Of a stretch of 64,000 nt of DNA, positions 14,266-60,964 are shown in pieces (the stretch's first letter is position 1; each line of letters opens with the position of its first letter). Both the position numbers and the translations under genes were made by a program. This DNA is from Gemmatimonadota bacterium (lineage in GTDB: Bacteria > Gemmatimonadota > Gemmatimonadetes > Gemmatimonadales > GWC2-71-9): the NCBI GenBank assembly GCA_031402225.1, contig JANNSD010000037.1, positions 15,283 to 79,282 of the forward strand, in the 5' to 3' direction. Below the pieces are notes generated by a model that did no database searches, was not told the origin of the DNA, and saw only the letters and a program-made list of their open reading frames with translations.

Positions 14266-15647
<1,382 letters not shown>

Positions 15648-28792: not shown

Positions 28793-28995
28793 ATGTCATG
28801 GGACGGGACGCAGCGACGTCCCGACAACAGAACCTGATCCGCCCGATAAGAGCACACCCGGAGTGATCCGGGGCCGCAAAACCAGAGGTCTCGCCTGCAG
28901 CCGCACTTCCGCGGTTCGCGAGATAGCTCGGTGCCGAAGGTGGAGAAATGCTGCGGGCAACCGCGGGTTTCCTTATCGGGTGTGGGAGCAGAATC

Positions 28996-39018: not shown

Positions 39019-39047
39019 TTGACAGCGGCGGTACCGCGCTTCATACT
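39019..39047 (+). promoter_or_regulatory. Sigma-70-type promoter: TTGACA - 17 nt - CATACT
   Basis: The -35 TTGACA is at 39019-39024, followed by a 17-nt spacer and the -10 CATACT at 39042-39047. It is the only near-consensus sigma-70 promoter I found. It implies a leader of about 210 nt before ATG 39265. Confidence 0.5.
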
Positions 39048-39264
39048 TGTCTCGCGCCGTCCCGGCCAGGACGGAGTTCCGTTGCACAACCCCAGCAGTC
39101 TCTCGACCCAAGGATGAACGCTTCGCGCGCTAGCGTGGAGCAGCGCAGTGCGCCGCAGAGGCGTATTCGTGTTTCTTAGCGAATGCTCCGGAGCGCCCGC
39201 TCCAGCGGTGATCGCATTGATGAAGGCTTCAGCAGCGCGGTTTACGCCCAGGAGGAAGGCTTCT

Positions 39265-42200
39265 ATGACACAAAGCGGAGTCAGCGCCTTCGCCCGACTC
39301 GCAAGACAGTTTGCGTTGTCGGCAGTACTGTTGCTTGCAAGCGCGGGAGCGCTGGCGGCACAGACTGGTAAGATCGAAGGCAAAGTGCGGGATCAGGCGG
39401 GTGCGCCGATCCAGAGCGCCCAGGTATTCATTGTGGGCACGGCATTCAGTGCACTCACCAATGCTCAGGGCTACTACTTCATCAACAACGTTCCGGCGGG
39501 TACGGTCGCGATCCGGGGCGCGTTCATCGGTTTCAAGAAGACCGAGGTCGAGGGCATCAAGGTGCTCGCCGGCCAGACGGTCACGCAGGACATCCAGCTG
39601 GAGCGCGCGACGGTCACCCTCGACTCGCTCACGGTCACCACGGCCGCCAACGCGCTGGTGCCGCGCGACGAGGTTACTACCAAGCAGCGTATCGACGGCC
39701 AGTTCACGGAAAACCTGCCGGTTGACCGCGTCGGCCAGGTACTGCAGCTGCAGCCGGGTGTGGTGGCTGAGGGCGCCAACGGTGCCTTCATCTCGATTCG
39801 CGGCGGCCGCAACGACGAGGCGGCGTTCTACGTCGACGGCGTCTCGGTGCAGCCGGGCAACCGGGGCACCGGCTTTGTGTCTGCCGGCACCAACGCGTCC
39901 AACGCGACCAACGGTGACGGTGGCGTGAGCGCGACCGGCGTCACCTTTGCGACCAACGGGTTCGAGGAAGTCTCGGTCACGACGGGCGCGGCGGCAGCAC
40001 AGTACGGCAATGCGCAGTCCGGTATCGTCAACATCACCTCCCGTACTGGCGGCGGCAGGTTTGCCGGCGCGGTGCGCGCCGAATCCGACGCGATGTTCGG
40101 CAATACGCTCGGCATGGGGTTCAACCGGTTTGAGGGCACCTTGAGTGGCCCGCTGGGGCTCAAGGGCCTGAGCTTCAGTGCCAACGTGGTGGGCGAAGGC
40201 AACGAGTCGTTGCGATTCGGCAAGGGCCGGGAGGACTTCCCGCTCTTCGTCACCACGGGTGTGGACACGGTCGTGTCCAACGAGAATGCCGACGGCAGCT
40301 TCTCTGACGTGAACGTCAACCAGTACTCGATTTACACCGGCGACTGCGACACGTTCTCGGGCAGCACCAACGCCGACATTTCCTCGAACAACGGTGAGGG
40401 GTGCAAGGGTGCGCGGGTGGCCAATTCGAGCTTCTCCGCGGGCCAGGTCGCCGGCAACATCAACTACTCGTATGGCAATGGTTCGCGGTTGCGCATTGGT
40501 GCCGCCGGCAGCCAGAACCAGGGGAAGAACTTCAGCTACTTCAATACGCTCAACCCCGGCGTCGCCGCGAACCAGCAGACCGGCTTCCGCGCGCAGAACG
40601 CCGTGTACACCCTGAACTGGACGCAGAACCTGTCCAAGAACGCCCAGCGCGCCCTGGCGCTCGACGTGAACCTGTCCTACCAGACCGACCGGTTCATCCA
40701 GAGCCCCTTTGCTGATGGCGGCCCCGGCACCGGCACGCTGGGATTCTACTTCAGCCCGATCCCGCTGCAGTACAACTTCGACTTCCTCGATACCCGCTAT
40801 GACGCTGACGGGAACGAGGCGGCCGGCGGGGAGTATTCGAAGCTCGATTGCTTTGTTCGCAACATCCAGTCATGCCTGGGCGCCATCGACCTGGGCGACG
40901 CCGACCAAGTGAACGCGCACCAGCCCCAGGTCACCTTCCGCTCCAACCCGTACGGCCTGGCGCAGACCTTCCCGGATGGCGGTCTCGCCAGCGCCCGGCT
41001 CCAGTTGTACAAGGAAAACCGGTACGTGGCGAACGCGACGCTCGACTGGCAGCTGGACCGGTACAACCGTATCCAGGTGGGCGGCGAGTACTTCAATTTC
41101 GACATGACCAGCTACTCCGCCTCTATTTCCAGCCAGGCGTTCTCGGATTACTGGGAGGAGAGCCCGACCCGGTACGCCGCGTTCATCCAGGATCGTCTGG
41201 ATATCGGCGACGTCGTGGTGCAGCTCGGCATCCGGTACGACTACTTCAGCACCAACGCCAACCGGTGGCAGGGATTCCCGAGCATCTCGACCAACCCGGC
41301 CCTGGAGCCGGGCGAGGATCCGACCAGCCTGTACGTGGCCGATGAGTCATTCGACTACATCAGCCCGCGGGTGCAGGTGGCCTTCCCGGTCACCGAGCGG
41401 ACGAACTTCCGCCTGTCGTACGCCCAGTCGGTCCAGTCGCCCGACTTTGCCCTGACCTTCAGCGGCATCAACACCGACCTCAGCGTGACCAACACGAACA
41501 ACGTGTATGGCCAGAATGTCGACTACGGCAAGTCCATCATCTTCGAGTTCGGCATCCAGCACGCCTTCAACGATGACATGGTCCTGGACATCTCGGCCTA
41601 CAACCGGGACAACCTGGCCAACGCCGCCGGTCGCCTGGTGACGTCGTTCAACCCTGTGTTCCAGCAGAACCAGGACCTGCGCCTCATCACCAACTCCGAC
41701 TTCGGCAACACCAAGGGCATCGACCTGCGGCTCAACCGTCGTTTCGGGCAACTGTTCAACGGCACGCTCGGGTACAGCTTCCAGAGCGCCCAAAACACCG
41801 GTAACGACCCGTTCACCTACCTGAACTTCGGTTCGCGCATCGTGAACCAGGTCACCGGCGGCAACCAGCCGCCCCCGCAGGCGATTGCGCCAGTGGCACT
41901 GTCGCGGCCGCACCAGCTGTCGGGCAGCTTCGGACTCACCTTCCCGAACGGGTGGAAGTCGGGGTCGACGGCGGGCACGATCTTCCAGAACGTGCAGGTC
42001 TTCGCGGTCTTCCGGTTCGCCAGCGGCACGGCGTACACTTCGTGCGGTAACCCGGACGGCAACCAGTCGGTGCTCTCGGGCCAGGTCTGCGGCCGCGGCG
42101 GCTTTACCAATGGGCTCAACAACACGCGCCTGCCGGGCTTCAACCAGTTCGACATGCGCTTCGTGAAGGGCTTCAACTTCGGCCGGAGCAACCTGGCCTT

Positions 42201-42621
42201 CTACCTGGATGCCCGGAACATCCTCGGCTTCACCAACACCCTGACGCAGTACGTGGTGACCAACAGCATCACCAGCGAGCTCGAGCAGGTTCAAAACTTC
42301 ACGGCTGACAGCAGCCGCAATGCGCAGGAAGGCCTCGGGAACGGTGTTTATGACGAGGCCACCGGTGCCATGAACCTCACGTTTGGTGGTGCCGGTGCGG
42401 GTGGCTGTGCCGATTGGGTCAACGCCAGCAACGCCGCCTCGGTCCCGAACTGCGTCTACCTCTCGCGGGCCGAACAGCGGTACGGCAATGGCGACGGCAT
42501 CTACTCGCTCCAGGAACAGCGGAACGCGTCGGACGCCCTGTACTTCTCCAACCAGGCCGCGCCCACGTTCTTCTACGGGCAGGGAACGGCACTGCGGCTC
42601 GGCGTGGAGTTCACTTTCTAA
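39265..42621 (+). CDS. Oar-type TonB-dependent outer-membrane barrel (CarboxypepD_reg domain + plug + large beta-barrel)
   Basis: Track ORF 39148..42621. I moved the start to ATG 39265 (GGAGGAAGG at 39251-39259). The signal peptide ends ALAA/QTG. GKIEGKVRDQAGAPIQSAQVFIVGT...TNAQGYYFINNVPAGTV is a carboxypeptidase-regulatory-like fold. The plug is LPVDRVGQVLQLQPGVV...ISIRGGRNDEAAFYVDGV. The barrel ends GVEFTF. Confidence 0.82.
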   Translation: MTQSGVSAFARLARQFALSAVLLLASAGALAAQTGKIEGKVRDQAGAPIQSAQVFIVGTAFSALTNAQGYYFINNVPAGTVAIRGAFIGFKKTEVEGIKVLAGQTVTQDIQLERATVTLDSLTVTTAANALVPRDEVTTKQRIDGQFTENLPVDRVGQVLQLQPGVVAEGANGAFISIRGGRNDEAAFYVDGVSVQPGNRGTGFVSAGTNASNATNGDGGVSATGVTFATNGFEEVSVTTGAAAAQYGNAQSGIVNITSRTGGGRFAGAVRAESDAMFGNTLGMGFNRFEGTLSGPLGLKGLSFSANVVGEGNESLRFGKGREDFPLFVTTGVDTVVSNENADGSFSDVNVNQYSIYTGDCDTFSGSTNADISSNNGEGCKGARVANSSFSAGQVAGNINYSYGNGSRLRIGAAGSQNQGKNFSYFNTLNPGVAANQQTGFRAQNAVYTLNWTQNLSKNAQRALALDVNLSYQTDRFIQSPFADGGPGTGTLGFYFSPIPLQYNFDFLDTRYDADGNEAAGGEYSKLDCFVRNIQSCLGAIDLGDADQVNAHQPQVTFRSNPYGLAQTFPDGGLASARLQLYKENRYVANATLDWQLDRYNRIQVGGEYFNFDMTSYSASISSQAFSDYWEESPTRYAAFIQDRLDIGDVVVQLGIRYDYFSTNANRWQGFPSISTNPALEPGEDPTSLYVADESFDYISPRVQVAFPVTERTNFRLSYAQSVQSPDFALTFSGINTDLSVTNTNNVYGQNVDYGKSIIFEFGIQHAFNDDMVLDISAYNRDNLANAAGRLVTSFNPVFQQNQDLRLITNSDFGNTKGIDLRLNRRFGQLFNGTLGYSFQSAQNTGNDPFTYLNFGSRIVNQVTGGNQPPPQAIAPVALSRPHQLSGSFGLTFPNGWKSGSTAGTIFQNVQVFAVFRFASGTAYTSCGNPDGNQSVLSGQVCGRGGFTNGLNNTRLPGFNQFDMRFVKGFNFGRSNLAFYLDARNILGFTNTLTQYVVTNSITSELEQVQNFTADSSRNAQEGLGNGVYDEATGAMNLTFGGAGAGGCADWVNASNAASVPNCVYLSRAEQRYGNGDGIYSLQEQRNASDALYFSNQAAPTFFYGQGTALRLGVEFTF

Positions 42622-42700
42622 CGTGGTGCATCTTCGGGCTCGGCCGAACCGCTGCAGGTTCGGTCGGGTCTGGTTGCGCTTCTACTCTGAGAGGACAGCA

Positions 42701-45700
42701 ATGAAAGTCTTGTTGCGTTCGAGAAGCCTCGCGGCGGGAGGACTGCTGGCGCTGGCGCTGGCAGCAATGATTCCTGCGACAGCCGCGGCCAAGCCGGAAC
42801 CGGGCGCGCGCCCGCGTGGCTTTCGCCTCTTCGCCCGGACACTGGGGGCGATCACGGTCAACCGGGTGTACCTTGGCCTCAGTTCGTCCAAGGGCAACAT
42901 CGGCGTCGACTCGACGAACTCGTCGACCATCGGCGGCGGATTCTGGCCGCGCGGCTCCGGCAACCAGTTCGTGTTCAACTCGGGCCTGCAGATCGCGGGC
43001 AAAGTAGACAACCCGGGCGGGGCCTGGGATGGTGACGTGACCGGCGCCTTCTTCTTCGACCCGAAGGGGACGACGGAGCACGGCGACGGTGTGGAGCCGA
43101 TTTACAACTTCGCGAACCCGGCTGACGCCGGCGCCTGGCCCGATGCCGCGAGGGTGCCAGTCGAGATCAATGAGGCCGACAACTTCTACAACCCGATCCT
43201 CCGTGGCATCATCTCGGCGTCTCAGGGCGACGTCTGGTTCGTGACCTGGGACGGCAACCCGACCCTGATTGCCGGCCGGCCGCACCCACTCGGCGTCGCC
43301 GTGGAGTCCCGCGGGCTTGCCTGGAACTACCCGACGGGCAACGAGGACATCGTCTACTTCACGTTCTCGTTCTACAACGTGACCGCGGCCGACCCGGCGG
43401 CCTACTCCGCCGTGCGGCCCGCGATCCGGCCTGTCATGCAGCAGCTAGGTGCGCAGTTCGTCAGCACGAACAGTGCAAGATTCCGGGTGGCCTTGCCGGC
43501 GGGCGGCTATGCCATTGACTCGCTGTTCTCGGCGTTCGCGGCCGACATGGACGTGTCCAACGCCGGCTCGAACTTCTGCTCGGTGAATATCCCGTTCGCG
43601 CTCGGATACTGCTACGAGCACACCTTTACATTCGACCCAACCAGTGGCGAGTCGTACGACAACCCGACCATCTGGGGCGCGCCGTTCTTCGGTGGCCCGG
43701 GCTTCGTGGGCGTGAAGTACCTCCGGAGTCCAACCGGCGTGGGTGAGATCCAGCTCTTCTCCAACACGATCAACTCGGCCACGGGCTTCCGTGATCCGGC
43801 CAACGTGTTCCAGCTCTTTCGCTACCTCTCCGGCAACCTGGATCCTTCGCAGGGCGACCAGGCCTGCAACGTCGCCGGCGGCTTTGCGGTGGGCATCTGC
43901 TTCATCAATCCAGCGTTTGCCGACGCCCGCTTCTACCAGTCCTCCACGGCGCTCAACCTGCCGCCGGGCGGCTTCGGCAGCATCGTGGTGGCATACATCT
44001 TCGCCGCCCCGGTGGCCATTCCCGGATTCACGCCGTCGGCCACCACCGACGTTACGCCAGGCAACCCGGTGATCCTGACCAACTCCGGGCTCCTGAGCGT
44101 CGGTGCCAACCAGATCGATTCGCTCACCGGATTCAACGGCTTCACCGACATCAACGGCGACGCGGAAGTTGAGCAGTCCGAGTTCCGCACCATTCCCGGC
44201 TCCCTGCTCAACAAGGCGCTCACGGCGCAGGTCATCTTCGACAATGGATTCCTGCTCCCGTTCGCGCCCACGTCGCCAAACTTCTACCTGATTCCCGGCA
44301 ACAATCAGGTGTCCATTGTCTGGCAGCCAACCTCCTCCGAGGTGACCGGCGACCCGTTCTACGCGGTGGCCAGCAACCCGGGGACCCCGCTCGAACCGAA
44401 CCTGCTGTACGACCCGAACTACCGGCAGTACGACGTCGAGGGCTACCGGCTCTATCGTGGCCGGGTGGACAACCAGGGGGCGCTCACGCTGGTGGCGCAG
44501 TTCGACTATGCCGGCACCGAAATGAACGACTTTTCCGGCCAGATCCAGCCGGTTTCCACCTGCGCACCCGAGCTGGGCGTCACCATCCTCTGCCCGGTGG
44601 CGTTCGACTACGTGCAGTTCACCGGTGTGCCGGCCACGGTGTCGACGGCCTACCCGCTGGTGGGCCAGTTTGTCCAGGTCAAGCTTGGGTCGGCGTCGCG
44701 CGTGGTCGTCAACCCAGGCCAGGTTCCCGGGGCTGACTGTATCGCCGCATCGTGTGCCCTGGTCATCGGCAACGCGGACACCGCACTCACGGGGTCGGGC
44801 GGACAGGGTGGCCCATACCCGCAGCTTAGCGACAACGGCGTGCCGTTCGGCTACATCGACCTCGAGCCGAAGAACAACTTCCGCTACTTCTACGCGGTCA
44901 CGGCGTTCGATGTGAACAGCTTCCAGTCGGGCCCGTCCAGCCTGGAGTCTCCGCGTATCGGCAAGCCGGTCACGCCCAGTGTCACCGGCTCCAACGTGGT
45001 GGCACCGCAGCTCACCTCCAGCCTGACCGGCACAGCTGGCACCGCACTCAATGTCGATGCACCCTTCGACATTGACGCGGCCACCGGCCGGTTCAGCGGC
45101 ACGCCACCGGCCACCAATGGCATCTCCGGTGCCTTTGCGCCGCTCATTCCGGCGCTGTTGCCCGCGCTGAACCTCGCTGCCAAGATCGACTCGGTGAGCG
45201 CGTACTTCAGCGAGAATCCGCTGTGTGGCGGCGTCACCAATTTCGGGGGCGGCGGCACCTGCTACATCTTTTACGTCACGTTCAAGAAGGATGGCGTCGA
45301 GACTCCGTTCGTCACGGTGACCCCGTGGCCAATCTGGAGTAACTTCGACGGCATCAACCAGTTTGAGGCGCAGCTCGGTGCCCAGCCGGTCAACATCGAC
45401 CCGGCGGCGGCAGCCACCTATGGTATCCCGGGCACGCTGACCGGCAGTGCCGCCGTAGGTATCACGCAGCGGCAGTACATCCAGTTCTCCAGCTTTGAGG
45501 GACAGGCGGCGAGGCGAGGGCTGGTGGCTAACAATACGGCCGCTCTGTGCGGAGCGAGCTTGACCAACTGCCAGACCTCGGTCTCGCCAGGAGGTTCCCG
45601 TTGGTTCCAGGGCGCCAATGAAACGCTGGACCACCCGGCAGTCAGCATCAAGGTCGGCGGGGGACTGACTGGCGTCGATACCGTCTGGGCGCCGATTCAC

Positions 45701-46690
45701 CATGTGCAGCGCGACCCAACGGCGCCAACCACGCCTGGTTCAGCGAGCAACAACGGCATTAACCAGTTCTGGGGCTACGGCTTTGCCGGCCTCGGCCGCC
45801 AAGCGGACGTGGTTCTCACATGGGGCGGCGGCGGCACCGCCTCGCTTCAGGACGTGACCCACGACGTACCGGTGGAGTTCAATACCCAGGCAGCCGCCTC
45901 CTGGGGCTTCGTCACCGATGCGGATGGCAGCGGCTACGTGGACTGGTCGGATTTCAACTATGCGCCCAATGTCGCGGAATGGTGGATCGCTCCGAACGGG
46001 GTTGATGCCGCAGACTTCTTTGGACCGGCCACCCTGGCGGATACCGTCCGCTACGTGAACACCGCCACCCCGGGTCCGGTCAGCACTCAGTTTGCCCCAG
46101 CCTCGGCAACCGGTGTGGGCATCGGCCTGTACATCAATGGTGAACGCTACATCTTCCAGCTCACCGGGGGTGCACTACCGGCGCCTGGTACCAAGTGGAC
46201 GCTCCGCACCTACAGCGGCATCGTACGCGCCGCGGCCGGAAGCGCAGCCGCCGGGACGCTGGCGGCAGGCACTACGCCCACCGGATATTCGTTCGCACCG
46301 GTCGTTCGCTCGCCGGGTATCGCCGGGCTCACGGTGCAGTTCACCGTTGCGCAGCCAACCGGCACGGTGGCCTCCACCAACCTGGACCTCCGGCAAGTGC
46401 ACACGGTGCCCGACCCGTACTACGTGACGAATGGCTTCGAGGCCACCACGGAATCGAAGGTGCTCCAGTTCGTGAACCTGCCAACCCAGGCTATCATCCG
46501 CATCTACACATCGAGCGGAATCCTGGTGAACCTGATCGAGCATAACTCGACCGATTTCAGCGGGTCGGAAGCCTGGAACCTCCGCAACCGGAACAACCAG
46601 GTGGTCGCATCGGGTGTGTACTTCTATATGATTGAAGCTGGCGACGCCCGACGGGTTGGTCGCTTCACGGTGGTGAACTTCGCCCAGTAG
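42701..46690 (+). CDS. Very large secreted protein with T9SS-type (Por_Secre_tail / FlgD-Ig-like) C-terminal sorting domain
   Basis: Track ORF 42383..46690. I moved the start to ATG 42701 (GAGAGGA upstream), giving 1329 aa. The signal peptide is MKVLLRSRSLAAGGLLALALAAMIPATAAA. The last ~100 aa (VHTVPDPYYV...AIIRIYTSSGILVNLI...EAWNLRNRNNQVVASGVYFYMIEAGD...FTVVN) follow the CTD pattern. An internal FN3-like unit (VSIVWQP...YDVEGYRLYRG...FRYFYAVTAFD) is split by an insertion. Confidence 0.75.
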   Translation: MKVLLRSRSLAAGGLLALALAAMIPATAAAKPEPGARPRGFRLFARTLGAITVNRVYLGLSSSKGNIGVDSTNSSTIGGGFWPRGSGNQFVFNSGLQIAGKVDNPGGAWDGDVTGAFFFDPKGTTEHGDGVEPIYNFANPADAGAWPDAARVPVEINEADNFYNPILRGIISASQGDVWFVTWDGNPTLIAGRPHPLGVAVESRGLAWNYPTGNEDIVYFTFSFYNVTAADPAAYSAVRPAIRPVMQQLGAQFVSTNSARFRVALPAGGYAIDSLFSAFAADMDVSNAGSNFCSVNIPFALGYCYEHTFTFDPTSGESYDNPTIWGAPFFGGPGFVGVKYLRSPTGVGEIQLFSNTINSATGFRDPANVFQLFRYLSGNLDPSQGDQACNVAGGFAVGICFINPAFADARFYQSSTALNLPPGGFGSIVVAYIFAAPVAIPGFTPSATTDVTPGNPVILTNSGLLSVGANQIDSLTGFNGFTDINGDAEVEQSEFRTIPGSLLNKALTAQVIFDNGFLLPFAPTSPNFYLIPGNNQVSIVWQPTSSEVTGDPFYAVASNPGTPLEPNLLYDPNYRQYDVEGYRLYRGRVDNQGALTLVAQFDYAGTEMNDFSGQIQPVSTCAPELGVTILCPVAFDYVQFTGVPATVSTAYPLVGQFVQVKLGSASRVVVNPGQVPGADCIAASCALVIGNADTALTGSGGQGGPYPQLSDNGVPFGYIDLEPKNNFRYFYAVTAFDVNSFQSGPSSLESPRIGKPVTPSVTGSNVVAPQLTSSLTGTAGTALNVDAPFDIDAATGRFSGTPPATNGISGAFAPLIPALLPALNLAAKIDSVSAYFSENPLCGGVTNFGGGGTCYIFYVTFKKDGVETPFVTVTPWPIWSNFDGINQFEAQLGAQPVNIDPAAAATYGIPGTLTGSAAVGITQRQYIQFSSFEGQAARRGLVANNTAALCGASLTNCQTSVSPGGSRWFQGANETLDHPAVSIKVGGGLTGVDTVWAPIHHVQRDPTAPTTPGSASNNGINQFWGYGFAGLGRQADVVLTWGGGGTASLQDVTHDVPVEFNTQAAASWGFVTDADGSGYVDWSDFNYAPNVAEWWIAPNGVDAADFFGPATLADTVRYVNTATPGPVSTQFAPASATGVGIGLYINGERYIFQLTGGALPAPGTKWTLRTYSGIVRAAAGSAAAGTLAAGTTPTGYSFAPVVRSPGIAGLTVQFTVAQPTGTVASTNLDLRQVHTVPDPYYVTNGFEATTESKVLQFVNLPTQAIIRIYTSSGILVNLIEHNSTDFSGSEAWNLRNRNNQVVASGVYFYMIEAGDARRVGRFTVVNFAQ

Positions 46691-46756
46691 TCCACTGGCC
46701 CGGTGAGCGGGGTCCCGAACGGGGCCCCGCCACCTACCCTAGGAGATCGAAAGATC

Positions 46757-47878
46757 ATGCGTGATTCTCAAAGACTTCGCTGGGCACTGGCGGGGATGCT
46801 GTTCATCGGGAGCCCGACGTTGCTTGCAGCCCAGAACACCACGGGCGACAACACGTCGTACGGCACCACGTCGGCGGAATTCCTGCTCCTTGGCGCTTCG
46901 GCGCGCGGCGCGGCACTCGGTACCTCGTTTTCCGCGATCGTAAACGACGTCAGCGCACTGTACTACAATCCAGCTGGTATCGCCTTACAGCGAACCAGCG
47001 GGTTCTCCGCCAGCGCGTACGATTACGTCGCGAGCACCAACTACGCCTGGGCCGGCCTCTCATTCCCGTTCAGCGGGCGGACCAGGGCCTTCGGCCTCCA
47101 GTTCGGCACCTTCGGTTTCGGTGACCAGCCGGTCTACACCGTCGAACAACCCGACGGCACAGGCTCGGTGTACTCGGTCAGCCAAACTTTCGGCGGCCTC
47201 ACCTACGCCCAGAACTTCTCCGACCGATTCAGCGCGGGCATCACGGCGAAGTTCATTTTCGACAATCTGGGTGGAGCCTCTGGCAGTGCGTTCGCGGTCG
47301 ATTTCGGCACGAACTTCCACTCCCGCCTTGGCGGGCGCCCGATTCAGTTCTCCTTCACCCTGACCAACTTGGGCACGTCGATCGATTACGGCGGCGACGC
47401 GCTGATCGTCCTGGTGCCGCGTGACTCGGTGCCCGGGGTGCCCACGGTGCCCACGAACCCGCAGCAGGGTGAGCTCAGCACCAAGGCGTCCAACCTCCCG
47501 ACCGTTTTCAAGGTGGCCCTGGGGTACGACCTGATTTCCAAGACCGATACACGCTGGACGCTGATTGCGGACTTCAACCAGCAGATCAGCAACAAGGCGG
47601 CGTTCGGTGTGGGCACGGAGGCGGCGTTCAAGCACCTCGGCGGGTCGGGCTTCGGCGCGGCGCTCCGGGCGAGCTACAGCTACCAGCCGGCCAACAACCT
47701 CACCCCGACGCAGCTCCCGAGCTCGGTGGCGGATGAGGAGAACCTGCAGGGGTTGGCGTTTGGCGGCGGTCTGTTCTTCGAGACGGCAGCCAAGTTCAGT
47801 CTTGGGCTCGACTATGCCTACCGGTACCTGGGCGTGCTCGGACCAACCAACTTCTTCACGTTCAGCGTCGGCTTCTGA
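46757..47878 (+). CDS. PorV/PorQ-like outer-membrane beta-barrel protein
   Basis: Track ORF 46703..47878. I moved the start to ATG 46757 (AGGAG at 46741-46745). The signal peptide ends LLAA/QNT. GTTSAEFLLLGASARGAALGTSFSAIVNDVSALYYNPAGIA is the conserved PorV-family opening. The protein has alternating beta-strand character and a terminal FTFSVGF. Confidence 0.7.
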   Translation: MRDSQRLRWALAGMLFIGSPTLLAAQNTTGDNTSYGTTSAEFLLLGASARGAALGTSFSAIVNDVSALYYNPAGIALQRTSGFSASAYDYVASTNYAWAGLSFPFSGRTRAFGLQFGTFGFGDQPVYTVEQPDGTGSVYSVSQTFGGLTYAQNFSDRFSAGITAKFIFDNLGGASGSAFAVDFGTNFHSRLGGRPIQFSFTLTNLGTSIDYGGDALIVLVPRDSVPGVPTVPTNPQQGELSTKASNLPTVFKVALGYDLISKTDTRWTLIADFNQQISNKAAFGVGTEAAFKHLGGSGFGAALRASYSYQPANNLTPTQLPSSVADEENLQGLAFGGGLFFETAAKFSLGLDYAYRYLGVLGPTNFFTFSVGF

Positions 47879-47896
47879 ACCGGGTTGGCTTACCGG

Positions 47897-47932
47897 CAGG
47901 CGGGCCCCTCACGGGGCCCGCCTGTGTCGTTT
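47897..47932 (+). terminator. Rho-independent terminator after the PorV-like gene
   Basis: Perfect 12-bp GC-rich stem CAGGCGGGCCCC - tcac - GGGGCCCGCCTG, followed by TGTCGTTT. Confidence 0.7.
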
Positions 47933-48030
47933 GGGGTCCGCCTGTCGTCTCCGGTGGCAGGTTGGCAGGGCGTGCCGGAGTCGGTCCGCGCCGCCCGCTC
48001 CCGAGTCACTGTCCCAACGGAGCAATCAAC

Positions 48031-49452
48031 GTGAAATTCCGGAGCTGGCTCGCTCTGGCCCTGCTGACGGTGTGCCTTCAGGTCTCAGCGGCACTGGCCC
48101 AGGCTACCGACGGCCTCTCCCTCCGCGCCGTGCGATCCTTCCGCCCCGAGAACGGCGGCCAGACGCGCGTTCGCGTCCTGATACAAATACCGCTGTCGGT
48201 GCTGGAACCGGGGCGCGCCGGCGTGTCGTACCAGATGGGGGTGAAGGTCACCGACCAGGCGGGCATCACTTTGCATACTGATGCCTGGCGCACGCATATA
48301 CCGCTGCTGACCGGCGTCCCGGGAGAGTACGGCCTCGAGATGATCGACTTCGCCGTTGCGCCGGGCAAGTACACCGTGTCAGTCGAGGTCACCGATTCCC
48401 TGTCGGGGCGGCAGCTTGCAAACGGGATTGCGGTGGAGGGATACGCCAGCCGGCCCGATGCGTCCGACCTGACCCTTGCCCGCAGCATGCGGCTTGCCGG
48501 GGCCAGCGACTCCGTGCCCGGTCCCGGCGAGATCAGGAAGGGCAACACCCTCCTCAGTCCTGCCGCTCTGCTGCGCCTCACGCCGCTGGAGCCCGAGGCG
48601 TACTACGTGCTCGAGGCGTACAATGACGGCGCGGAAGAGTCTGGCACGATGGCAGTCGAGGTGCTCGATGCGGCAGGCAAGGCGGTGTTCCAGACCCCCA
48701 ACACCCCGGTGAAGGTTGCTGCCTCAGGAGGCATGCTGAAGGGACGCCTCAACCTGGAGGGCTTGCCCCAGGGCCAGTACCAGTTGAAGGTGCTGCTCCA
48801 GTTCGGCACCCGGGCGGTGGATCGCTCGGCACCGATGACCATGGCAGGCCTCGATACCACCCTGCAGCGGGAAGTGGCTCGCATTGGCGTCGAGCGGGTC
48901 AGCGACGAGGGGTACTTCAAGTACATGTCGAGCGAAGGCCTCGACTCCGCCTTTGCGCCGCTGTACTACCTCGCGACGCCCTCCGAGCTCAAGGTGTGGA
49001 ACAAGTCGCTCAGCGATGACGGGAAGAAGCGCTACCTGACGGAGTTCTGGCAGGCCCGCGACCCCAGCAAGGGCACGGCCACGAACGAGGCCCGCGACCA
49101 GTTCTATGCCGCGATCGCGTTCGCCAACAGGGAGTTCAAGGAACGCAGTGTACCCGGCTGGAAAACCGACCGGGGCAGGATCTTCGCCAAGTACGGTGTG
49201 GCGCCCTCGGTGCTGCGGCGGGCGCAAATACAACGGGCGCCGCCGTACGAGGTATGGAACTACCCGGAGAAGGGTTTCTGGTACATCTTCGCCGACCGGA
49301 CCGGCGTCGGGCAATGGCGCCTGCTGATTTCGGGCGACCTGAAGGAGCCGAGGCAGGCTGACTGGCGCGACATCCTGACGGAAGATGGTGTGCGCGATGC
49401 GGGGCGCTTCCTGAACGTGGACTTCTATGGCGGGCAGTGGAAGTCCTACTGA
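48031..49452 (+). CDS. GWxTD domain-containing secreted protein
   Basis: Track ORF 47962..49452. I moved the start to GTG 48031 (signal VKFRSWLALALLTVCLQVSAALA/QAT). The C-terminal part contains ...YLTEFWQARDP...FYAAIAFANREF...VPGWKTDRGRIFAKYG...YEVWNY, the motif that names the GWxTD family. Confidence 0.75.
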   Translation: MKFRSWLALALLTVCLQVSAALAQATDGLSLRAVRSFRPENGGQTRVRVLIQIPLSVLEPGRAGVSYQMGVKVTDQAGITLHTDAWRTHIPLLTGVPGEYGLEMIDFAVAPGKYTVSVEVTDSLSGRQLANGIAVEGYASRPDASDLTLARSMRLAGASDSVPGPGEIRKGNTLLSPAALLRLTPLEPEAYYVLEAYNDGAEESGTMAVEVLDAAGKAVFQTPNTPVKVAASGGMLKGRLNLEGLPQGQYQLKVLLQFGTRAVDRSAPMTMAGLDTTLQREVARIGVERVSDEGYFKYMSSEGLDSAFAPLYYLATPSELKVWNKSLSDDGKKRYLTEFWQARDPSKGTATNEARDQFYAAIAFANREFKERSVPGWKTDRGRIFAKYGVAPSVLRRAQIQRAPPYEVWNYPEKGFWYIFADRTGVGQWRLLISGDLKEPRQADWRDILTEDGVRDAGRFLNVDFYGGQWKSY

Positions 49453-50436: not shown

Positions 50437-51504
50437 TCAGGTCCTGGCGCGCACCAGTAGCACCACGGCGGCGAGGCCGAACACCGCGTTGGGAAGCCAC
50501 GCGGCCGCCTCCGGCTTGACCAGCCCGCCGGCGCCAAGCGCCTGGGACAGCTGCACCAGCAGCAGGAAGACGATGGTGGTGACCAGGCTGATCCCAATGC
50601 CGATGGCGGTGCCGGCGCGGTAGGAGGTCATGGCCAGCGGCGCCCCGAAGAATGCGATGATGATGCACGTGGCCGGCACCGCCAGCTTGAGCGCGCGCAT
50701 GACCCGCACCTTGCCGGCGTCGGACCCCGAGTTTTCCACCGCCTCGATGTACCTCCCCAATTCCGCGTAGCGCATCTCTTCCGGCCGGCGCGGTTCCGCC
50801 AGCAGGTCCGACGGCAGTTCCTTCATGCTGGTGAGCCGCATGGACCGGAAGCGGAAGCTGGCCTGCTCGGCGCCATCCACGATGGCCCGGGTCGATCCTC
50901 CCCACAGGCGCCAGCCGGTACTGTCCCAGGTGGCGCTGTCCGCCGTGATCGCGAGCGACGGAAGGATGGCACTCTGCCGGGTCAGCACGACATCCGTGAG
51001 TCGATTGTTTGGTGCGTCGAGCGTGCGGACGGTATAGACCCACCCGCGCTCGGCGCGGTACACGAAGTTGTAGCGCTGCCCCCGCGAACCGGCGCGCTCG
51101 CCGTGGATCTGGACCTTGCGCTCGGTCATGGCCGGGGCGAGTTCCTCGAGCGCCAGGCACAGGCCGGCGGCGAATACGGCGCCGACATAGATCGGCAGCA
51201 CGAATCGATGGAAGCTGATGCCACCGGCCTTGGCGGCGGTCAGTTCCGAGTGGCGTCCGAGGGTGCCCACGGTGAAGACGGTGGCAACGAGCACTGCCGC
51301 GGGGATGATCTCGAACATCTTCTCGGGGAGCAGGTAGGCGTAGCCCAGCGCAATGCCCTGGAAGGGAATCCCCCGGTCGAGGAGCTTCTTCAGGTTGTCG
51401 GTGAGGTCGATGAGGGTCGCGACAATGGGGAACCCCAGGATGGTGAGGAGGAAGAGCCGGAGCCAGCTCTGCAAGACATACCGGTCGAGCAGGGCCCACC
51501 GCAT
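50437..51504 (-). CDS. lptG: LPS export permease LptG-like (YjgP/YjgQ family)
   Basis: 355 aa. LDRYVLQSWLRLFLLTILGFPIV is the family N-terminus, followed by SELTAAKAGGIS. Its start overlaps the upstream stop by 1 nt (TGATG at 51502-51506). Confidence 0.75.
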   Translation of the reverse strand: MRWALLDRYVLQSWLRLFLLTILGFPIVATLIDLTDNLKKLLDRGIPFQGIALGYAYLLPEKMFEIIPAAVLVATVFTVGTLGRHSELTAAKAGGISFHRFVLPIYVGAVFAAGLCLALEELAPAMTERKVQIHGERAGSRGQRYNFVYRAERGWVYTVRTLDAPNNRLTDVVLTRQSAILPSLAITADSATWDSTGWRLWGGSTRAIVDGAEQASFRFRSMRLTSMKELPSDLLAEPRRPEEMRYAELGRYIEAVENSGSDAGKVRVMRALKLAVPATCIIIAFFGAPLAMTSYRAGTAIGIGISLVTTIVFLLLVQLSQALGAGGLVKPEAAAWLPNAVFGLAAVVLLVRART

Positions 51505-53048
51505 CAGCGGACCACCGGGCCGGCCGGCGCGGTGTTGCGACGCCGGAAGGGACGCAGCAGGTCGGCGAGTTCACCCCCGCGGGAGGTGCCGCCGCCCCGG
51601 TGGACCAGGAGGAGCCCGATGAGGGCGAGCGCGCCGAGGATGATATTGGGCGACCACATCGCCAGGGCCGGCGAGGCGTAGCCCCGGTCCGCCAGGGTCT
51701 CGCCCGCGGTCAGGCCGACGTAGAACACGGAGTACACGAACATTCCGCCCCCCAGCACCAGCCCCATGCCCCCCCGGGGGAACCGGAGGGCCATCGCCAC
51801 GGCGATCAGCACGAACGGGATGGAGGCGAAGCTGAGCGACCACTTCTTGTGGATCTCGACCCGGTACCGGTTGGCACGGCGGGTAGCGTTCGTCTCCCGG
51901 TCGGCGATCGACGCGACCGTGCCATTGTCGCTGAGCCGTGGGGCGCCGGTCGGCGGGGGGGCGGGAGCGGGGGCCGGGGCGGGGCCAGGACCCGGCGGAG
52001 CGACGTCGGGCGCGGCGGCAACCGGAGGTTCCTGTGTTGTTCCAACCTGCTCCGCCGTCCCCCTCCTCACGGCTCCGGAAACTGCCGCAAACAGTCCGCA
52101 GTACGCGCCCCGATAGCTGGCTTGTGGAGATGGGGTGGCGGAAGGCGGGGCGGGTTCAGGGGGTCGCCCCAGCAGGATCTGGAGATCGGAGCGGGTAAGT
52201 TCCGCCCGTTGAGACCTCGCATCGCGGATGTCCCTGCGCGCGCTGTCCACCACGCCCATGAGCTCACAAGTCGTCATTTCCCGGTCGCTGCGGTCCAACT
52301 GATCCTCGCTTCGCTCCAGTTGGTCGAAGACGTCCTTGAAGACAATTTCCTGCGTGGTGAAGGCGGTATGCTCGAACGCCGGCCGGTCGGCCGTGGAGAC
52401 CTGCTGGACGGACCCGTGGTAGAGCCGCAGCACGAGGTCGCGGCCGTCCGGGGTGTAGCCCATGAGGCCGCTGTCAGCATAGATGATGCGGCGCCGGTTG
52501 GCCTGGCCTACATCGTAGATGGAGACGCTCCGCAGCCGCCCGGAGCCGGGGTCGATCCGGCTCGCGCGGAGAAAGTACTGCGATGGTGGCACCCGGTTGA
52601 TGACGTTCTCGACCAGGGAGAAGGTGGGCTTTTTCTTGGCAATATCGAAGTAGAGATTACGCAGCCGGGCATTGCTCTGCGGCAGGACTTGATCCACGAA
52701 GCCGAACGTTATCAGGCCCATCACGACCGCCCAGGCCAGCACGGGGCGCAACATGCCGATCGTGCTTACTCCCCCGGCACGCATCGCGGTGATTTCGCTG
52801 TCACTCGCCAGCTGGCTGAACGCGTACAGCGTCGCCGCCAGAACGGCGAGTGGCAGGGTCATGGCCATCAGGAACGGCACGCTCAAGAGGAACACCTCGC
52901 CGATGACCGACCAGGGCAACCCCTTGCCGACCAGGCCGGCGAACTTGCGCCCGACGAGGTTGAGAAGCATGACGCCGGTGAGCGCAAGCAAGCCGAAGAG
53001 GAAGGGCAGCGCCAACTGGCGAAGGAGGTACCTGGAGAGGACGCGCAC
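51504..53048 (-). CDS. lptF: LPS export permease LptF-like (YjgP/YjgQ family) with a ~95-aa Pro/Ala-rich insertion
   Basis: 514 aa. The N-terminus is MRVLSRYLLRQLALPFLFGLLALTGVMLL, followed by SEITAMRAGGVS. It is about 130-150 aa longer than usual because of a low-complexity segment (…PPEPAPPSATPSPQ…PPGPGPAPAPAPAPPPTGAP…) before the last three TM helices. Confidence 0.75.
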   Translation of the reverse strand: MRVLSRYLLRQLALPFLFGLLALTGVMLLNLVGRKFAGLVGKGLPWSVIGEVFLLSVPFLMAMTLPLAVLAATLYAFSQLASDSEITAMRAGGVSTIGMLRPVLAWAVVMGLITFGFVDQVLPQSNARLRNLYFDIAKKKPTFSLVENVINRVPPSQYFLRASRIDPGSGRLRSVSIYDVGQANRRRIIYADSGLMGYTPDGRDLVLRLYHGSVQQVSTADRPAFEHTAFTTQEIVFKDVFDQLERSEDQLDRSDREMTTCELMGVVDSARRDIRDARSQRAELTRSDLQILLGRPPEPAPPSATPSPQASYRGAYCGLFAAVSGAVRRGTAEQVGTTQEPPVAAAPDVAPPGPGPAPAPAPAPPPTGAPRLSDNGTVASIADRETNATRRANRYRVEIHKKWSLSFASIPFVLIAVAMALRFPRGGMGLVLGGGMFVYSVFYVGLTAGETLADRGYASPALAMWSPNIILGALALIGLLLVHRGGGTSRGGELADLLRPFRRRNTAPAGPVVR

Positions 53049-53150: not shown

Positions 53151-56100
53151 GTGAAGCGCCTTCTTCTGGCCCTGGGCGTGGTGGCCTGCAGTCCGGTGGT
53201 GGCAGGTGCGCAAGCCGATTCTCTTGCCCCGCCGCCCGATACCACCTCCGTGTCCGGGGTGGGGGTGAAGGCCGGGCTGGGGGCGCCACCCCTCACGCTG
53301 CGCGTGCCACCCCAGTATCGGCAGTCCTGGGCACTCGGGCCGCGGCCCCGTCCGGGCGCCACCGCCGCTGCGTGGCAAGCCACCCTCAACGCCGCTGTTG
53401 ATTCCACCCTGAGCGCCCAAGCCAGCAGCCAGGTGCTCATCAGCCTGTACGGGGGGAGCCAGGAGTCGGCCGACTCCGCCGAGGCGGCGTTGCAGAGGCG
53501 CGGGCTGTTCGGGATCAACCGCAGTATCGTGGACCTGACGCTCGACGGAACTATCCGGCTCGAGTTGCGCGCCGATCGTCTGAAAAACCTTCGCTGCACC
53601 CCGGCATCGCTCAGCGATCCTTCCAGCGGATGCCGGGGCGACATCAACGGTCCGCGGCTCGACAACCAGATGACCATCCGCTCGGGCGGCGTGATTGGTC
53701 GGCGGCTCCGCGTCAATGTCGACTGGGATACGCAGCGCGACTTCACCAATAGTAACATTATCCAGGTGTTCTACGAGGGGCTCGAGGACGAGCCGATCCG
53801 GCGTGTCGAGGTTGGCAGCGTCGTGTTCCGGCCGCCGTCGTCGCGCTATCTCGCCGCGTCCATTCCCACGAACAACTTCGGTGCCAGTGCCCTTGTCGAG
53901 CTGGGGCAGCTCCAGATGCAGGTGTTGGCGGCGACCCAGAAGGGCAGCGCCATCGGGCAGCGGGTGTTCACGATCGGCCAGGCGGTCGCGACACCACAGG
54001 ATCGCAGCGTGCGCGACCTGGACTTCGAGTTCGGCCGCTTCTACTGGACCGTCGATCCGCGCACGCTGCCGAACTTTCCCGCCATCGACGCGCTCAGCCT
54101 CGATACCCTGAGCGTATCGCCCGGCGTGCGGCCGGCGGAGCTCAGGGTGTACCGCTACCGGGTGCCGCGGCTCACGGGGGGAGTGGACCCGAACCTCGGC
54201 GGCATACCCGCCTGCGCCTTCCAAGGGGGGACAACCGGCAGGACCTTCGGCCCGGTACCGTGGCAGCTGCTCGTGCTGGGCGCCGACTACTACACCGATC
54301 CCTCGGGCCTCTGGATCGCCATGTCCCAGCGGGTAGACCTGCAGGCCGACTACCTCGCCGTGAGCTACGTGACCGAGGCTGGCACGACGGTCGGCAGCTT
54401 TCCCGGTGCTCCCAAGCCGGGCGCGGGCACCACCTGCGCCTCGGTCGACACGCTACGCATGATTGTCGAGCCGCTGGTGGGCAGCGACCAGCCATCGTTC
54501 CATCACGAGATGCGGCAGTTCTACCGGGTGGCGGGCCAGGACCTCGATCCGGCGTCGCTCCAGGTGGATCTCGCGGTGAATCGCTCGGAGCGACCGCTGC
54601 CGCCCTCGAGCTTCTCCACGTACCTGAGCGCGCTCGGCCTGTCCATACCCACGGACGAGAATACCTTCGACTGGGCGAACCGGCTCTTCCCGCGTGCGCG
54701 CGACCCAGGGGCCGACCTGCTCGTTCGAGAGGCGTTCCTCGCGTTCCCCAACATCAAGCCGTTCGGCAATCCCGCCGTGCTGGGGCCGACGGAACGGAAC
54801 GACTCCCTGTACCAGACGCCGGTCTACCTGCTGTTCTCGCAGGGACCGCCGAGCAAGTTCCTGTTCCGGCTGCGATACAGTTCCAGCGGTGCCGGTGACC
54901 GCAGCGCCCTCAACCTGAACGCGCTGCAGGTCCTCGAGGGTTCCGAGAAGCTGTTCCTGAGTGGTCGGCAGCTGACCCGCGGGACTGACTACACGATCGC
55001 CTACGAAACGGGGTTGGTCACCTTCCTCAATCCCGAGGCGCTCTTCGGCAGCGGGGTGGGCCAGATCACGGCGCAGTTCGAGGAGCGCGGGGTGTTCGCG
55101 GTGGCACCGACGTCGATTTTCGGTCTCACCACGCGCTACGACCTGGGCCGGACCGGCAGCGTCAATTTCGTCGGTATCTACCAGCGCGAAAATTCGGCGT
55201 TTGCACGCCCGGCGCTCGGTTTCGAGGCCAGCGCCAATCTGATCGCCGGCGCCAACACCGACCTGCATTTCAGACCCACGGCGTTGAGCCGGCTGGTCAG
55301 CTCCATTACCAACCGCAACGGATCGTCCGAGGCATTCCTCGACATCAATGGCGAGTTCGCCTTCACCCGGCCCGACCCCAACCGGACCGGGCAGGCGTAC
55401 ATCCAGGAGTTCGAGGGGGTCTCGGGCAGCGCGGTGAGCCTGGGGGCGGCGGTGTGGCAGTACGGCAGCGTGCCCCAATCCACCGTCGGCCTCGATCCAT
55501 CACTGGGCTTCGGGGCCACCTTCGACACCGCGGACGCAGTGCAGATGATCTGGCAGAACCTGATTCCGGGGCCGGATGGCGGGGTGGTGCAGTTCTTTCC
55601 CGAGGACATCGACCCGAACATCGTGACCGTGGGGAACCAGCAGGTGCCGGAGACGGTGATGTACCTGACCCTGCATGCGGACACGGCGGGCGGCGTGGTG
55701 CAGCAGAACAACCGGTCGCTCTGGACCCAGCCGCCGAGGCCCAACACACCGCGTTGGCGCTCGATGCAGACGGCCATCAGCACGGTGGGCGTCGATTTCA
55801 CCGCCAATACCTACATCGAATTCTGGCTCTACACCGACGCGGCCAAGAGCGCCGAGACCGCCGGGGTGAACCTGGTGTTCGATCTGGGGCAGGTGAACGA
55901 GGACGCGGTGGGGGCGGCACCGGACACGCTCAAGGTTGAGGCCGGCGACTCCCTCTATGTGGGCCGGCAGTATGTGGGCGTCGGTGTGCTGAATTCGGAG
56001 CGACAGTCCACCGGCATCTTCAACGCGCAGGCCGATGACATCGGCATCCTGGGGGACATCCCGCCAATCGTGCTGCCCAACCTGGATACCGACCCCGCCT

Positions 56101-60187: not shown

Positions 60188-60243
60188 CCCTCCCCGTTTT
60201 CCGGGTGCGCCCGATCCGGGCGTCGTATCCGACATTCACACGC

Positions 60244-60885
60244 ATGCCCCCCGAACACCGCGCGGTGCTGCTTCTGCTGGGCCTCGGGCTCGTTGGTCAC
60301 GTTGTGCGGCTGGTCGCGTCCGACGCCAGCCAGCCGCCGGGTGAGGTGCGGCTGCTGGGCGCCTCGGCGGGCTCTGCCGCGCTCGCGCGACGCGACAGTC
60401 TGGTGCGCCTTGCCCGTCCCCTTGGCCCGGGTGAGCGGATCGACGTGGATCGCGCCTCGGCGCAGGAGCTCCAGCGGCTGCCCGGCGTCGGGTCAGGTCT
60501 GGCACGCCGAATCGTGGAGGAACGCAACCGGTCGGGGCCGTTCGGCGACACGGCGGCATTGGGCCAGGTGCCGGGCATTGGGCCAGCCAAGCTCAAGCGC
60601 ATGGCGCCGAATCTTGCTTTCTCGGCTCCGCCGCGCGCGGCCGCCACGGTCGCGCCGAGCGCCGCGATCAACGATGCCCCGCCACCGGTCATCACCGACG
60701 TGATCAACCGCGGGTCGGTGACGGACCTGGAGCGGCTTTCCGGCATTGGCCGGCGCCGGGCCGCGCGAATCGTCGCCTTTCGCGACAGCGCGGGCCCCTT
60801 CCGGAGCCCCTCCGACCTGGCTCGGGTACTCGGCATCAGCCTTGCGCTTGCGCAAGGTCTCTGGACAGCAGCGGGGCAGCAATGA
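60244..60885 (+). CDS. comEA: ComEA-like helix-hairpin-helix DNA-binding protein (two HhH modules)
   Basis: Track ORF 60205..60885 (GTG). I prefer ATG 60244 (MPPEHRAVLLLLGLGLVGHVV, TM anchor). ASAQELQRLPGVGSGLARRIVEERNRSGPF and TDLERLSGIGRRRAARIVAFRDSAGPF are ComEA-type HhH units. Confidence 0.75.
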   Translation: MPPEHRAVLLLLGLGLVGHVVRLVASDASQPPGEVRLLGASAGSAALARRDSLVRLARPLGPGERIDVDRASAQELQRLPGVGSGLARRIVEERNRSGPFGDTAALGQVPGIGPAKLKRMAPNLAFSAPPRAAATVAPSAAINDAPPPVITDVINRGSVTDLERLSGIGRRRAARIVAFRDSAGPFRSPSDLARVLGISLALAQGLWTAAGQQ

Positions 60886-60964
60886 CAGCGATGCCATGCC
60901 CATGTCTGCGTAGCATATCACTCAGCAGAGCAATCACTTAGGCACTTGGCCAGGTACGGTTGAC

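Follow-up and report, generated by a model that had tools for sequence, protein, structure and literature searches.

What does a bacterium outside the Bacteroidota do with a giant secreted protein that bears a probable type IX secretion system (T9SS) sorting signal and is encoded between a TonB-dependent transporter (TBDT) and a PorV-like barrel? The question is raised by a locus in a 64,000-nucleotide stretch of contig JANNSD010000037.1 (GenBank assembly GCA_031402225.1, Gemmatimonadales, positions 15,283 to 79,282), which we call the window over its whole length and which has a GC content of 67%. Three genes on its plus strand, here named G1, G2 and G3, are separated by gaps of 79 and 66 nt; their positions, sizes and spacing agree with a first-pass annotation made from the sequence alone, which had read them as a cassette of cargo, shuttle and anchor. 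A gene for a GWxTD-domain protein follows (Table 1). The locus is best explained as a conserved outer-membrane surface module dependent on the T9SS. Tentatively, and somewhat short of even confidence, we read it from its sequence as a T9SS-delivered surface protein (G2) that would be held on a PorQ/PorV-like barrel (G3) and would work with the transporter G1.

The four proteins and their conservation

G2 is a secreted protein of about 140 kDa from an undescribed family. Its Sec signal peptide, MKVLLRSRSLAAGGLLALALAAMIPATAAA, was judged from the translation by reading. We found more than 891 full-length homologues of around 1300 aa, and the family is present in 356 species-representative genomes, nearly all of them labelled Gemmatimonadales or Gemmatimonadota. 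In an exhaustive representative search with the G2 body, the best 150 of 662 clusters were viewed, all of them at least 37% identical. The body gave no Pfam domain, and Peptidase_C25 was absent from 15 family members. Regarding its structure, residues 31-1230 were modelled confidently by AlphaFold2 (pLDDT 81.6), and the model shows supersandwich, FN3 and mixed domains. The N-terminal module (aa ~40-790) consists of a beta-supersandwich plus FN3, in which cysteines are paired and many polar residues are invariant. Foldseek returned weak matches to the non-catalytic beta-supersandwich of GH94/GH116 enzymes, to YidC-P1 and to FN3 arrays, and the G2 profile gave no PDB sequence match. Family-wide pairwise conservation was 0.72-0.91 in the C-terminal domain (CTD), the best conserved part of the protein, 0.55-0.7 in the N-terminal 750 residues and 0.24-0.44 in residues 800-1200. 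We read G2 as a base and a CTD that are constant, with a swappable head between them.

Two known T9SS surface proteins were considered as identities for G2 and rejected. For PorU, the C25 domain is missing from the 15 members, the NF033707 match is limited to the C-terminus and the PorU structure 6za2 lies outside the 50 best Foldseek matches. For PorZ, there are no beta-propellers, NF052228 covers model positions 690-745 of 757, and 5m11 is likewise outside the 50 best matches. We confirmed that both structures are present in the PDB set.

The T9SS CTD assigned to G2 in the first-pass annotation is supported at the level of the family, although the window copy itself lies below the cutoffs of TIGR04183 (15.8 bits, cutoff 23) and CHU_C (18.3 bits, cutoff 27); against NF052228, at the PorZ C-terminus, it scored 22.6 bits. 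All 15 family members matched both the PorZ C-terminus (best 2e-8) and TIGR04183 (best 1.2e-4), while 7 matched the PorU C-terminus and 14 matched CHU_C weakly. The likeness of the G2 CTD ranks the PorZ C-terminus first and PorU next. Some G2 orthologues carry the NCBI name "T9SS type A sorting domain-containing protein". PDB searches with the CTD profile and with the single window CTD gave no match.

G3 was identified as a 14-strand (FadL-type) barrel by its score of 135.5 bits against NF033709 (cutoff 90), with residues 37-371 aligned to model positions 1-324 of 326, and its first description as PorV-like was right. It fell below the equivalog cutoffs for PorQ (NF033711, 66.8 vs 220 bits), PorV (NF033710, 50.5 vs 250) and PorV2 (48.1 vs 325), and its score against the PorQ model exceeds that against the PorV model, as it also does in the low-GC counterparts described below. 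On these scores, G3 is classed as a separate lineage within the PorV/PorQ family. Its single PDB sequence match (E <= 10) was PorV of Flavobacterium johnsoniae (6h3i_F, E 2.8e-6). A look-up of the exact sequence of the window G3 gave no record.

Regarding G1, the Oar-type barrel proposed for it passed the Pfam gathering thresholds, with 60.5 bits for PF13620 (threshold 32.3), 35.8 for PF07715 and 72.9 for PF00593; its N-terminal extension also matches PF13715 (49.3 bits). A CarboxypepD_reg domain followed by a plug and a TonB-dependent barrel is the defining architecture of the Oar subclass (PMC6434023). G1 is made up of a signal peptide, the CarboxypepD_reg extension, the plug and a 22-strand-type barrel with a C-terminal phenylalanine, and a TonB-box-like motif, DSLTVTT, was spotted by eye. 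The SusC family model was absent from its NCBIfam matches at E <= 0.1, the downstream G2 is not SusD-like, and a PDB sequence search with G1 gave no match.

The GWxTD protein scored 89 bits against TIGR04514 (cutoff 28) and 42.6 bits against PF20094 (cutoff 26.9). It has a signal peptide, two Ig/FN3-like sandwiches and a C-terminal alpha/beta GWxTD domain (AlphaFold2 pLDDT 85.9). Foldseek matched residues 30-271 only, to RbmA and transglutaminase C-domains (E ~1e-8), and neither Foldseek nor a profile search gave a solved relative of the alpha/beta domain. An identity as a SprA plug or another solved protein was rejected, with Foldseek covering the Ig-like part alone and the profile search empty. 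The term "GWxTD" was absent from the papers of the literature that we searched.

Synteny in relatives had been set beforehand as the test of the cassette, next to profile searches, which support the family assignments. We counted it in 80 Gemmatimonadales loci, with G2 identity down to 39%, and found the triad to be syntenic in nearly all of these relatives as well as in a distant low-GC lineage. G1 lies directly upstream of G2 in 62/64 loci and G3 directly downstream in 69/73. Since the GWxTD gene follows G3 in 66/70 loci, the conserved unit comprises four genes. Median identity across loci was 59% for G3 and 44-47% for G1, G2 and the GWxTD protein. In four loci of more distant Gemmatimonadales (L011, L016, L038 and L069), the GWxTD gene is succeeded by a fifth co-directional gene, which the window lacks; its product of 370-570 aa ends in a PPC (pre-peptidase C-terminal) domain. 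Besides, two contigs labelled as metagenome-assembled genomes of Bacillota (L012) and Acidobacteria (L060) carry Gemmatimonadales-like cassettes, most likely through mis-binning.

A scan of metagenomes for GW(K)TDRG in AT-rich codons gave 120 low-GC loci (L081-L200), almost all of them encoding GWxTD proteins. Among these, 24 proteins share the two-Ig plus GWxTD build of the window protein; usable upstream sequence is available for 9 of them, and in 7 a PorV/PorQ-family gene is the immediate upstream neighbour. One contig (L129, 34% GC) encodes, in the order of the window, a TonB-dependent receptor (TBDR; plug and barrel, truncated where the contig stops), a CTD protein of 1214 aa, a PorV/PorQ-family barrel (NF033709, 184.6 bits; PorQ 90 > PorV 85) and a GWxTD protein, which show 25-31% identity to the window proteins. 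An hhalign comparison of the large L129 protein with G2 gave 94.6% probability (E 7e-8) for 594 colinear columns within the N-terminal 770 residues, and 93% for 166 C-terminal columns. By these profile alignments it is classed as a remote G2 homologue along its length. In PDB searches its CTD ranked PorZ and then PorU first, at non-significant values (E 0.16 and 0.25). As a separate observation, 95/119 low-GC GWxTD open reading frames (ORFs) match the GWxTD-domain part of the model alone and have no PorV-like neighbour, and forms of 690-710 aa stand in tandem in L101, L117 and L147. The GWxTD domain family is far broader than the cassette and very common in low-GC metagenomic bacteria.

Parts of the unit are duplicated together. 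Five loci (L047, L051, L058, L060 and L068) carry pairs, G1'-G2', that have neither G3 nor the GWxTD gene and whose ORFs abut or overlap. G1' and G2' are both ~42-44% identical to G1 and G2, which points to co-duplication of the two genes. All five pairs are flanked by genes for Ser/Thr kinases, TPR proteins or BTAD regulators; the kinase genes are large and combine Pkinase with TPR or with BTAD, and a further gene combines BTAD with PD40. This suggests that the pairs are kinase-regulated variants of the module, and in their setting they resemble regulated uptake loci. In two further loci (L061, 1945-5958; L063, 2316-6122) an extra full-length G2 paralogue, 36-37% identical and with a diverged CTD, lies between the M24 peptidase gene and G1.

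The whole triad is present twice, ~55 kb apart, in one genome (assembly CAVZZO010000001.1, L044 and L049). Here the G1 copies share 76% nucleotide identity, and identity between the G3 copies is 98.9%. Between the G2 copies it reaches 96-100% in residues 1-800 and 100% in the CTD, with 32-54% and no detectable nucleotide similarity at residues ~800-1250. At the nucleotide level the two G2 genes are mosaic, with ~96% identity in the first 2.3 kb and again in the CTD and G3, and a middle of ~1.1 kb that could not be aligned. This pattern is evidence, read from sequence, for replacement of the G2 middle cassette by recombination. According to these results, G2 is the hub of the cassette, with G1-G2 pairs and one G1-G2-G3 triad duplicated as units.

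Hence the proposed cassette of cargo, shuttle and anchor survives in part: the triad is conserved, and once duplicated as a unit, but the unit has four genes. "Cargo plus shuttle" is probably too simple, because the CTD is the most conserved part of G2 and closest to PorZ/PorU, and because G3 scores higher as PorQ than as PorV.

Expression signals and neighbouring genes

The first-pass annotation had placed the triad between a sigma-70 promoter and a clean terminator. The string TTGACA-17-CATACT has a single match within 10 kb; 1.0 is the chance expectation, so it is no proof on its own. In related loci, we found TTGACA-N16-18-nAnnnT upstream of the G1 start, mostly at 205-250 nt, in 48/61 cases and in 0/61 coding-region controls, and the hexamers are invariant although the surrounding intergenic DNA has diverged. 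Because of this conservation we take the promoter to be real. Plausible ribosome-binding sites precede G1 (AGGAGGAAGG), G2 and G3.

The leader of G1 is ~215 nt long (39048-39264) and has a stem-loop at its 5' end, which was found in about 32/48 loci. Its stem shows compensatory changes (CCGCC/GGCGG, CCGACC/GGTCGG, CCGATC/GATCGG, CCCGGCC/GGCCGGG and GCCTGAC/GTCAGGC), and comparison of L001-L080 showed a conserved GGGCCGC loop and a conserved block, GGTTCACGCCTTTGGAGGACGTTTCCATG, at the 3' end of the leader. The leader RNA had no Rfam family match and its fold is no stabler than those of shuffled sequences, and we rejected a known riboswitch. The element may act in mRNA stabilisation or regulation.

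The terminator fared less well than the promoter. After G3, a hairpin stem (47896-47925) is followed by GUGUCGUUU, a U-rich tail, and the folding energy of the region is -50 kcal/mol (z = -3.2). The hairpin was not picked up by a simple terminator scan; it is kept in the nearest relatives (L001-L004 and L077). It is at most a clade-specific attenuator, because G3 and the GWxTD gene, which belongs to the unit, abut or overlap in many more distant relatives. Smaller hairpins are also present in both the G1-G2 and the G2-G3 gap.

The gene upstream of G1 encodes a cytoplasmic M24 peptidase. Beyond it come housekeeping genes; the upstream 25 kb of the window contains these alone, and no more T9SS genes. 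Downstream of the cassette are a UbiA gene of the heme O synthase type, lptG and lptF (PF03739, E 6.5e-65 and 3.1e-83) and, 5 kb from the cassette, a gene for a homologue of the Sov/SprA translocon (437.5 bits against TIGR04189, cutoff 200). The UbiA gene was ruled out as a link to lipopolysaccharide (LPS) or glycan, relatives showing a CtaA-CtaB heme O synthase fusion. Genes lptG/lptF likewise lie near the cassette in L001-L004 and L077. The low-GC lineage has, after the cassette in L129 (8894-10445) and L084 (6243-9655), genes for a lipid A acyltransferase (LpxL-like), a GT9 heptosyltransferase, Sua5/TsaC and an M23 peptidase, and ORFs of matching sizes stand after the GWxTD gene in L093, L096, L110 and L160.

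Further from the cassette, an M28 peptidase gene and type IV pilus genes stand after sprA, encoding a ComEA-like helix-hairpin-helix protein, PilB and PilT (60205-63816, plus strand); PilB (735 bits) has an N-terminal MshE-type motif for binding cyclic di-GMP (c-di-GMP). A c-di-GMP-I riboswitch aptamer (RF01051, 46.2 bits, gathering 35) is located at 28841-28938 on the plus strand, with an acetyl-CoA-synthetase-like gene on one side and, ~530 nt downstream on the other, the start of an ABC/CcmB-type transporter operon.

Table 1. Features of the cassette and of its surroundings in the window
Feature	Position	Strand	Signature or composition
Sigma-70-type promoter	39019..39047	+	-35 TTGACA, 17-nt spacer, -10 CATACT
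5' stem-loop of the leader	39057..39074	+	CCGTC / CCGGCCAG / GACGG
G1, Oar-class TonB-dependent transporter, 1118 aa	39265..42621	+	Pfam PF13620, PF07715, PF00593
G2, secreted protein of an undescribed family, 1329 aa	42701..46690	+	Sec signal, N-terminal module, variable region, T9SS CTD
G2 variable "head", aa ~800-1200	45098..46300	+	Lowest family-wide conservation
G2 CTD, aa ~1230-1329, T9SS type-A-like	46388..46687	+	Weak NCBIfam/Pfam matches; family-wide recovery
G3, 14-strand (FadL-type) outer-membrane barrel, PorV/PorQ family, 373 aa	46757..47878	+	NF033709
GC-rich 13-bp hairpin with U-rich tail	47896..47933	+	Terminator- or attenuator-like
GWxTD-domain protein, 473 aa, fourth member of the conserved unit	48031..49452	+	TIGR04514, PF20094
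LptG and LptF LPS-export permease genes	50437..53048	-	PF03739
Sov/SprA T9SS outer-membrane translocon homologue, 2033-aa ORF	53151..59252	+	TIGR04189, PF14349 SprA_N

How the module may work

The reading of G2 as a surface protein held on G3 and working with G1 draws directly on the domain identities, the gene order and its conservation, the co-duplication, the conservation profile and the nearby translocon gene. G1 and G2 are linked by adjacency, co-duplication and the regulator-linked paralogues; the link of G2 to G3 comes from their neighbouring position, their joint duplication and the fact that it is precisely the CTD and the barrel that are so extremely conserved. From this we infer the physical contacts, the retention of the CTD, the surface location, the direction of transport and the substrate. 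In such a module, the near-consensus sigma-70 promoter, with the ~215-nt leader and its 5' stem-loop, would drive G1-G2-G3, and the GWxTD gene would be expressed by read-through or at a lower level. G2 would cross the inner membrane via Sec, and its PorZ/PorU-like type A CTD would be recognised by the SprA encoded downstream. G3 would receive G2, which would be parked on the cell surface in the way that PorZ is held by PorQ and PorU by PorV (PMC5562754, PMC8545088). G1 would act as an Oar-class TBDT and would associate with the conserved N-terminal base of G2, with its carbohydrate-binding-type beta-supersandwich and FN3, while the distal head would capture a strain-variable ligand for TonB-powered uptake. 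The GWxTD protein would be a secreted accessory protein. By analogy, the cassette would in effect be a non-lipoprotein counterpart of the SusCD/BtuBG complexes of barrel and surface protein.

Several observations weigh against this reading. LPS genes adjoin the cassette in two lineages (LptFG here; L129 and L084), and a role in envelope assembly matches this adjacency at least as well as nutrient uptake does. The promoter of the main locus looks constitutive, and there are no substrate-processing enzymes besides the upstream cytoplasmic M24 peptidase. Foldseek matched G2 weakly (E ~2e-4, TM 0.15-0.2), and a ligand cannot be named. Besides, the invariant polar residues in the N-terminal half of G2 could mark an enzyme or an LPS-binding site instead of a docking surface.

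One could argue that the cassette is core T9SS machinery, an analogue of the attachment complex outside the Bacteroidota, in which G2-G3 would act as PorZ-PorQ or PorU-PorV and would bind or deliver LPS or glycan to fix cargo, G1 would be PorF-like and the GWxTD protein a further subunit. The presence of the cassette, almost unchanged in length and order, in the genomes of 356 species, its conservation across very distant lineages, a CTD closest to PorZ/PorU, a G3 that scores higher as PorQ than as PorV, a gene order that parallels porU-porV (PMC5445135) and the adjacent sprA and LPS genes all favour it. PorF, a TBDR-like T9SS protein, has been proposed as a glycan importer for A-LPS (PMC12704123), and the hypervariable G2 head could follow a strain-specific O-antigen. 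However, G2 has neither the C25 peptidase fold nor beta-propellers, and neither PorU nor PorZ is among its 50 best Foldseek matches; its conserved cysteines are paired in a disulfide-like manner; the G1'-G2' paralogues beside kinase regulators and without G3 would be unusual for core machinery; and the adjacency of LPS genes is not universal within Gemmatimonadales. We consider this explanation rather unlikely. It is still less likely that there is no dedicated complex, so that G3 would be a general PorV shuttle, G2 an abundant and conserved cargo beside it, and G1 an independent nutrient transporter that shares the promoter. G3 is indeed the best conserved gene of the block, as expected of a general shuttle that has to fit SprA, a second PorV-family ORF was found neither in the window nor in 1.5 Mb of related flanking sequence, and G2 paralogues without an adjacent G3 retain the same CTD. 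What speaks for a dedicated unit instead is the co-duplication of G1 and G2 with abutting ORFs, the four-gene order kept at 25-31% identity in the low-GC lineage and a CTD conserved far beyond the need of cleaved signal domains.

The hypervariable head also invites an explanation of G2 as a major surface coat or shield, like a surface layer (S-layer) or a decoy for phages or predators, anchored by G3 beside an abundant barrel and with the head under diversifying selection. T9SS-delivered S-layer proteins are known in Tannerella, and a conserved strong promoter with a long leader and a stabilising 5' stem-loop, together with an exposed and cassette-like hypervariable region, would suit such a coat. 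We nevertheless regard it as improbable: the promoter stands before G1 and not before G2, we saw neither repeats nor features of a lattice type, and the invariant polar residues of its conserved N-terminal half suggest a specific binding or catalytic site. Finally, the first-pass annotation had raised G1 as an export channel for G2. The precedent is real, since Oar of Myxococcus serves in the export of PopC and has the Pfam architecture of G1 (PMC6434023), and the tight adjacency of G1 and G2 would fit. But with a Sov/SprA gene 5 kb away and a matching T9SS signal on G2, no Oar-type export channel is needed. G2 is a protein of ~140 kDa with a Sec signal, and a PorV-family carrier is encoded immediately downstream of it. 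We hold this explanation to be highly improbable.

Relation to known systems and significance

The PorU-PorV and PorZ-PorQ pairs are among the closest precedents (PMC5562754). In the attachment complex of Porphyromonas gingivalis, as in the cassette, a large type A CTD surface protein is paired with a FadL-type barrel of the PorV/PorQ family, and porU-porV shares with G2-G3 the order of large CTD protein and then barrel. In contrast to these pairs, the G2 body has an unrelated fold, the cassette adds a TBDT and a GWxTD protein, the hosts lie outside the Bacteroidota, and the retention of the G2 CTD is our proposal. Genes for type B CTD cargo are paired with genes for cognate PorP/SprF shuttles (PMC12618676, PMC9143113), and in F. 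johnsoniae a secreted CTD protein gene is likewise linked to that of a receiving or anchoring barrel; here, however, the CTD is type-A-like, the barrel belongs to the PorV/PorQ family and two further genes complete the unit. Complexes of a surface protein and a TBDT are a hallmark of the related Bacteroidota (PMC12578637). SusCD and BtuBG likewise place a TonB-dependent barrel with a CarboxypepD_reg-type extension beside a co-duplicating surface partner, with paralogous pairs near dedicated regulators. In contrast, G1 was not detected by the SusC model, and G2 is neither a lipoprotein nor SusD-like and would reach the surface via the T9SS.

Regarding the individual barrels, Oar of Myxococcus xanthus has a Pfam architecture identical to that of G1 (PF13620, PF07715, PF00593), but an export route for the neighbouring G2 is encoded nearby, so that nothing calls for an export role of G1. 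PorF is a TBDR-like component of the T9SS (PMC5445135, PMC12704123). Compared by description, PorF (PG0534) is a plug-containing TBDR-like barrel tied to the T9SS, as proposed for G1, although it is smaller (92 kDa) and its gene is not beside porZ or porQ. FadL-type barrels can also serve as pedestals (PMC12611786): in BamG-BamH of the Bacteroidota beta-barrel assembly machinery (BAM), a FadL-family barrel carries a large extracellular protein, as G3 would carry G2. An identity of G3 and G2 with this pair was rejected, since G3 matches PorV alone, and not BamG, in PDB sequence searches, and G2 gave no BamH match and no BAM chain among its 50 best Foldseek matches.

The first-pass annotation had put the cassette forward as seemingly undescribed. 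Its parts have precedent, but the G2 family and the fixed four-gene combination are new, as are the occurrence of this combination in two deeply separated lineages and the hypervariable cassette within G2. The T9SS "may be present" in Gemmatimonadetes according to the literature (PMC11285876), and our literature search on the T9SS in Gemmatimonadota or on PorV2 gave nothing relevant.

Type IX secretion has been studied almost exclusively in Bacteroidota, and the cassette, known from hundreds of species of Gemmatimonadales and again from a distant lineage of low GC content, offers a compact genetic entry point to the roles of PorV/PorQ-family barrels beyond that of canonical shuttle, to the purpose of TBDR-like T9SS components such as PorF, and to how Gemmatimonadota and other abundant bacteria of the soil assemble their surface or capture their substrates. 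Strain-level surface diversity has a ready marker in the hypervariable cassette of the otherwise constant G2. Going further, it is conceivable, if on balance somewhat unlikely, that the four genes are an ancient machine that predates the split of Gemmatimonadota and the low-GC T9SS-bearing lineage, in which a TBDT would work with a T9SS-delivered partner on a PorQ-like barrel, with the GWxTD protein as a new, obligatory subunit and the specificity for a ligand or an O-antigen set by the swappable head. If so, the cassette would represent an unrecognised route to complexes of barrel and surface protein, or a coupling of the T9SS to LPS-linked surface assembly, in bacteria without surface lipoproteins of the Bacteroidota type.

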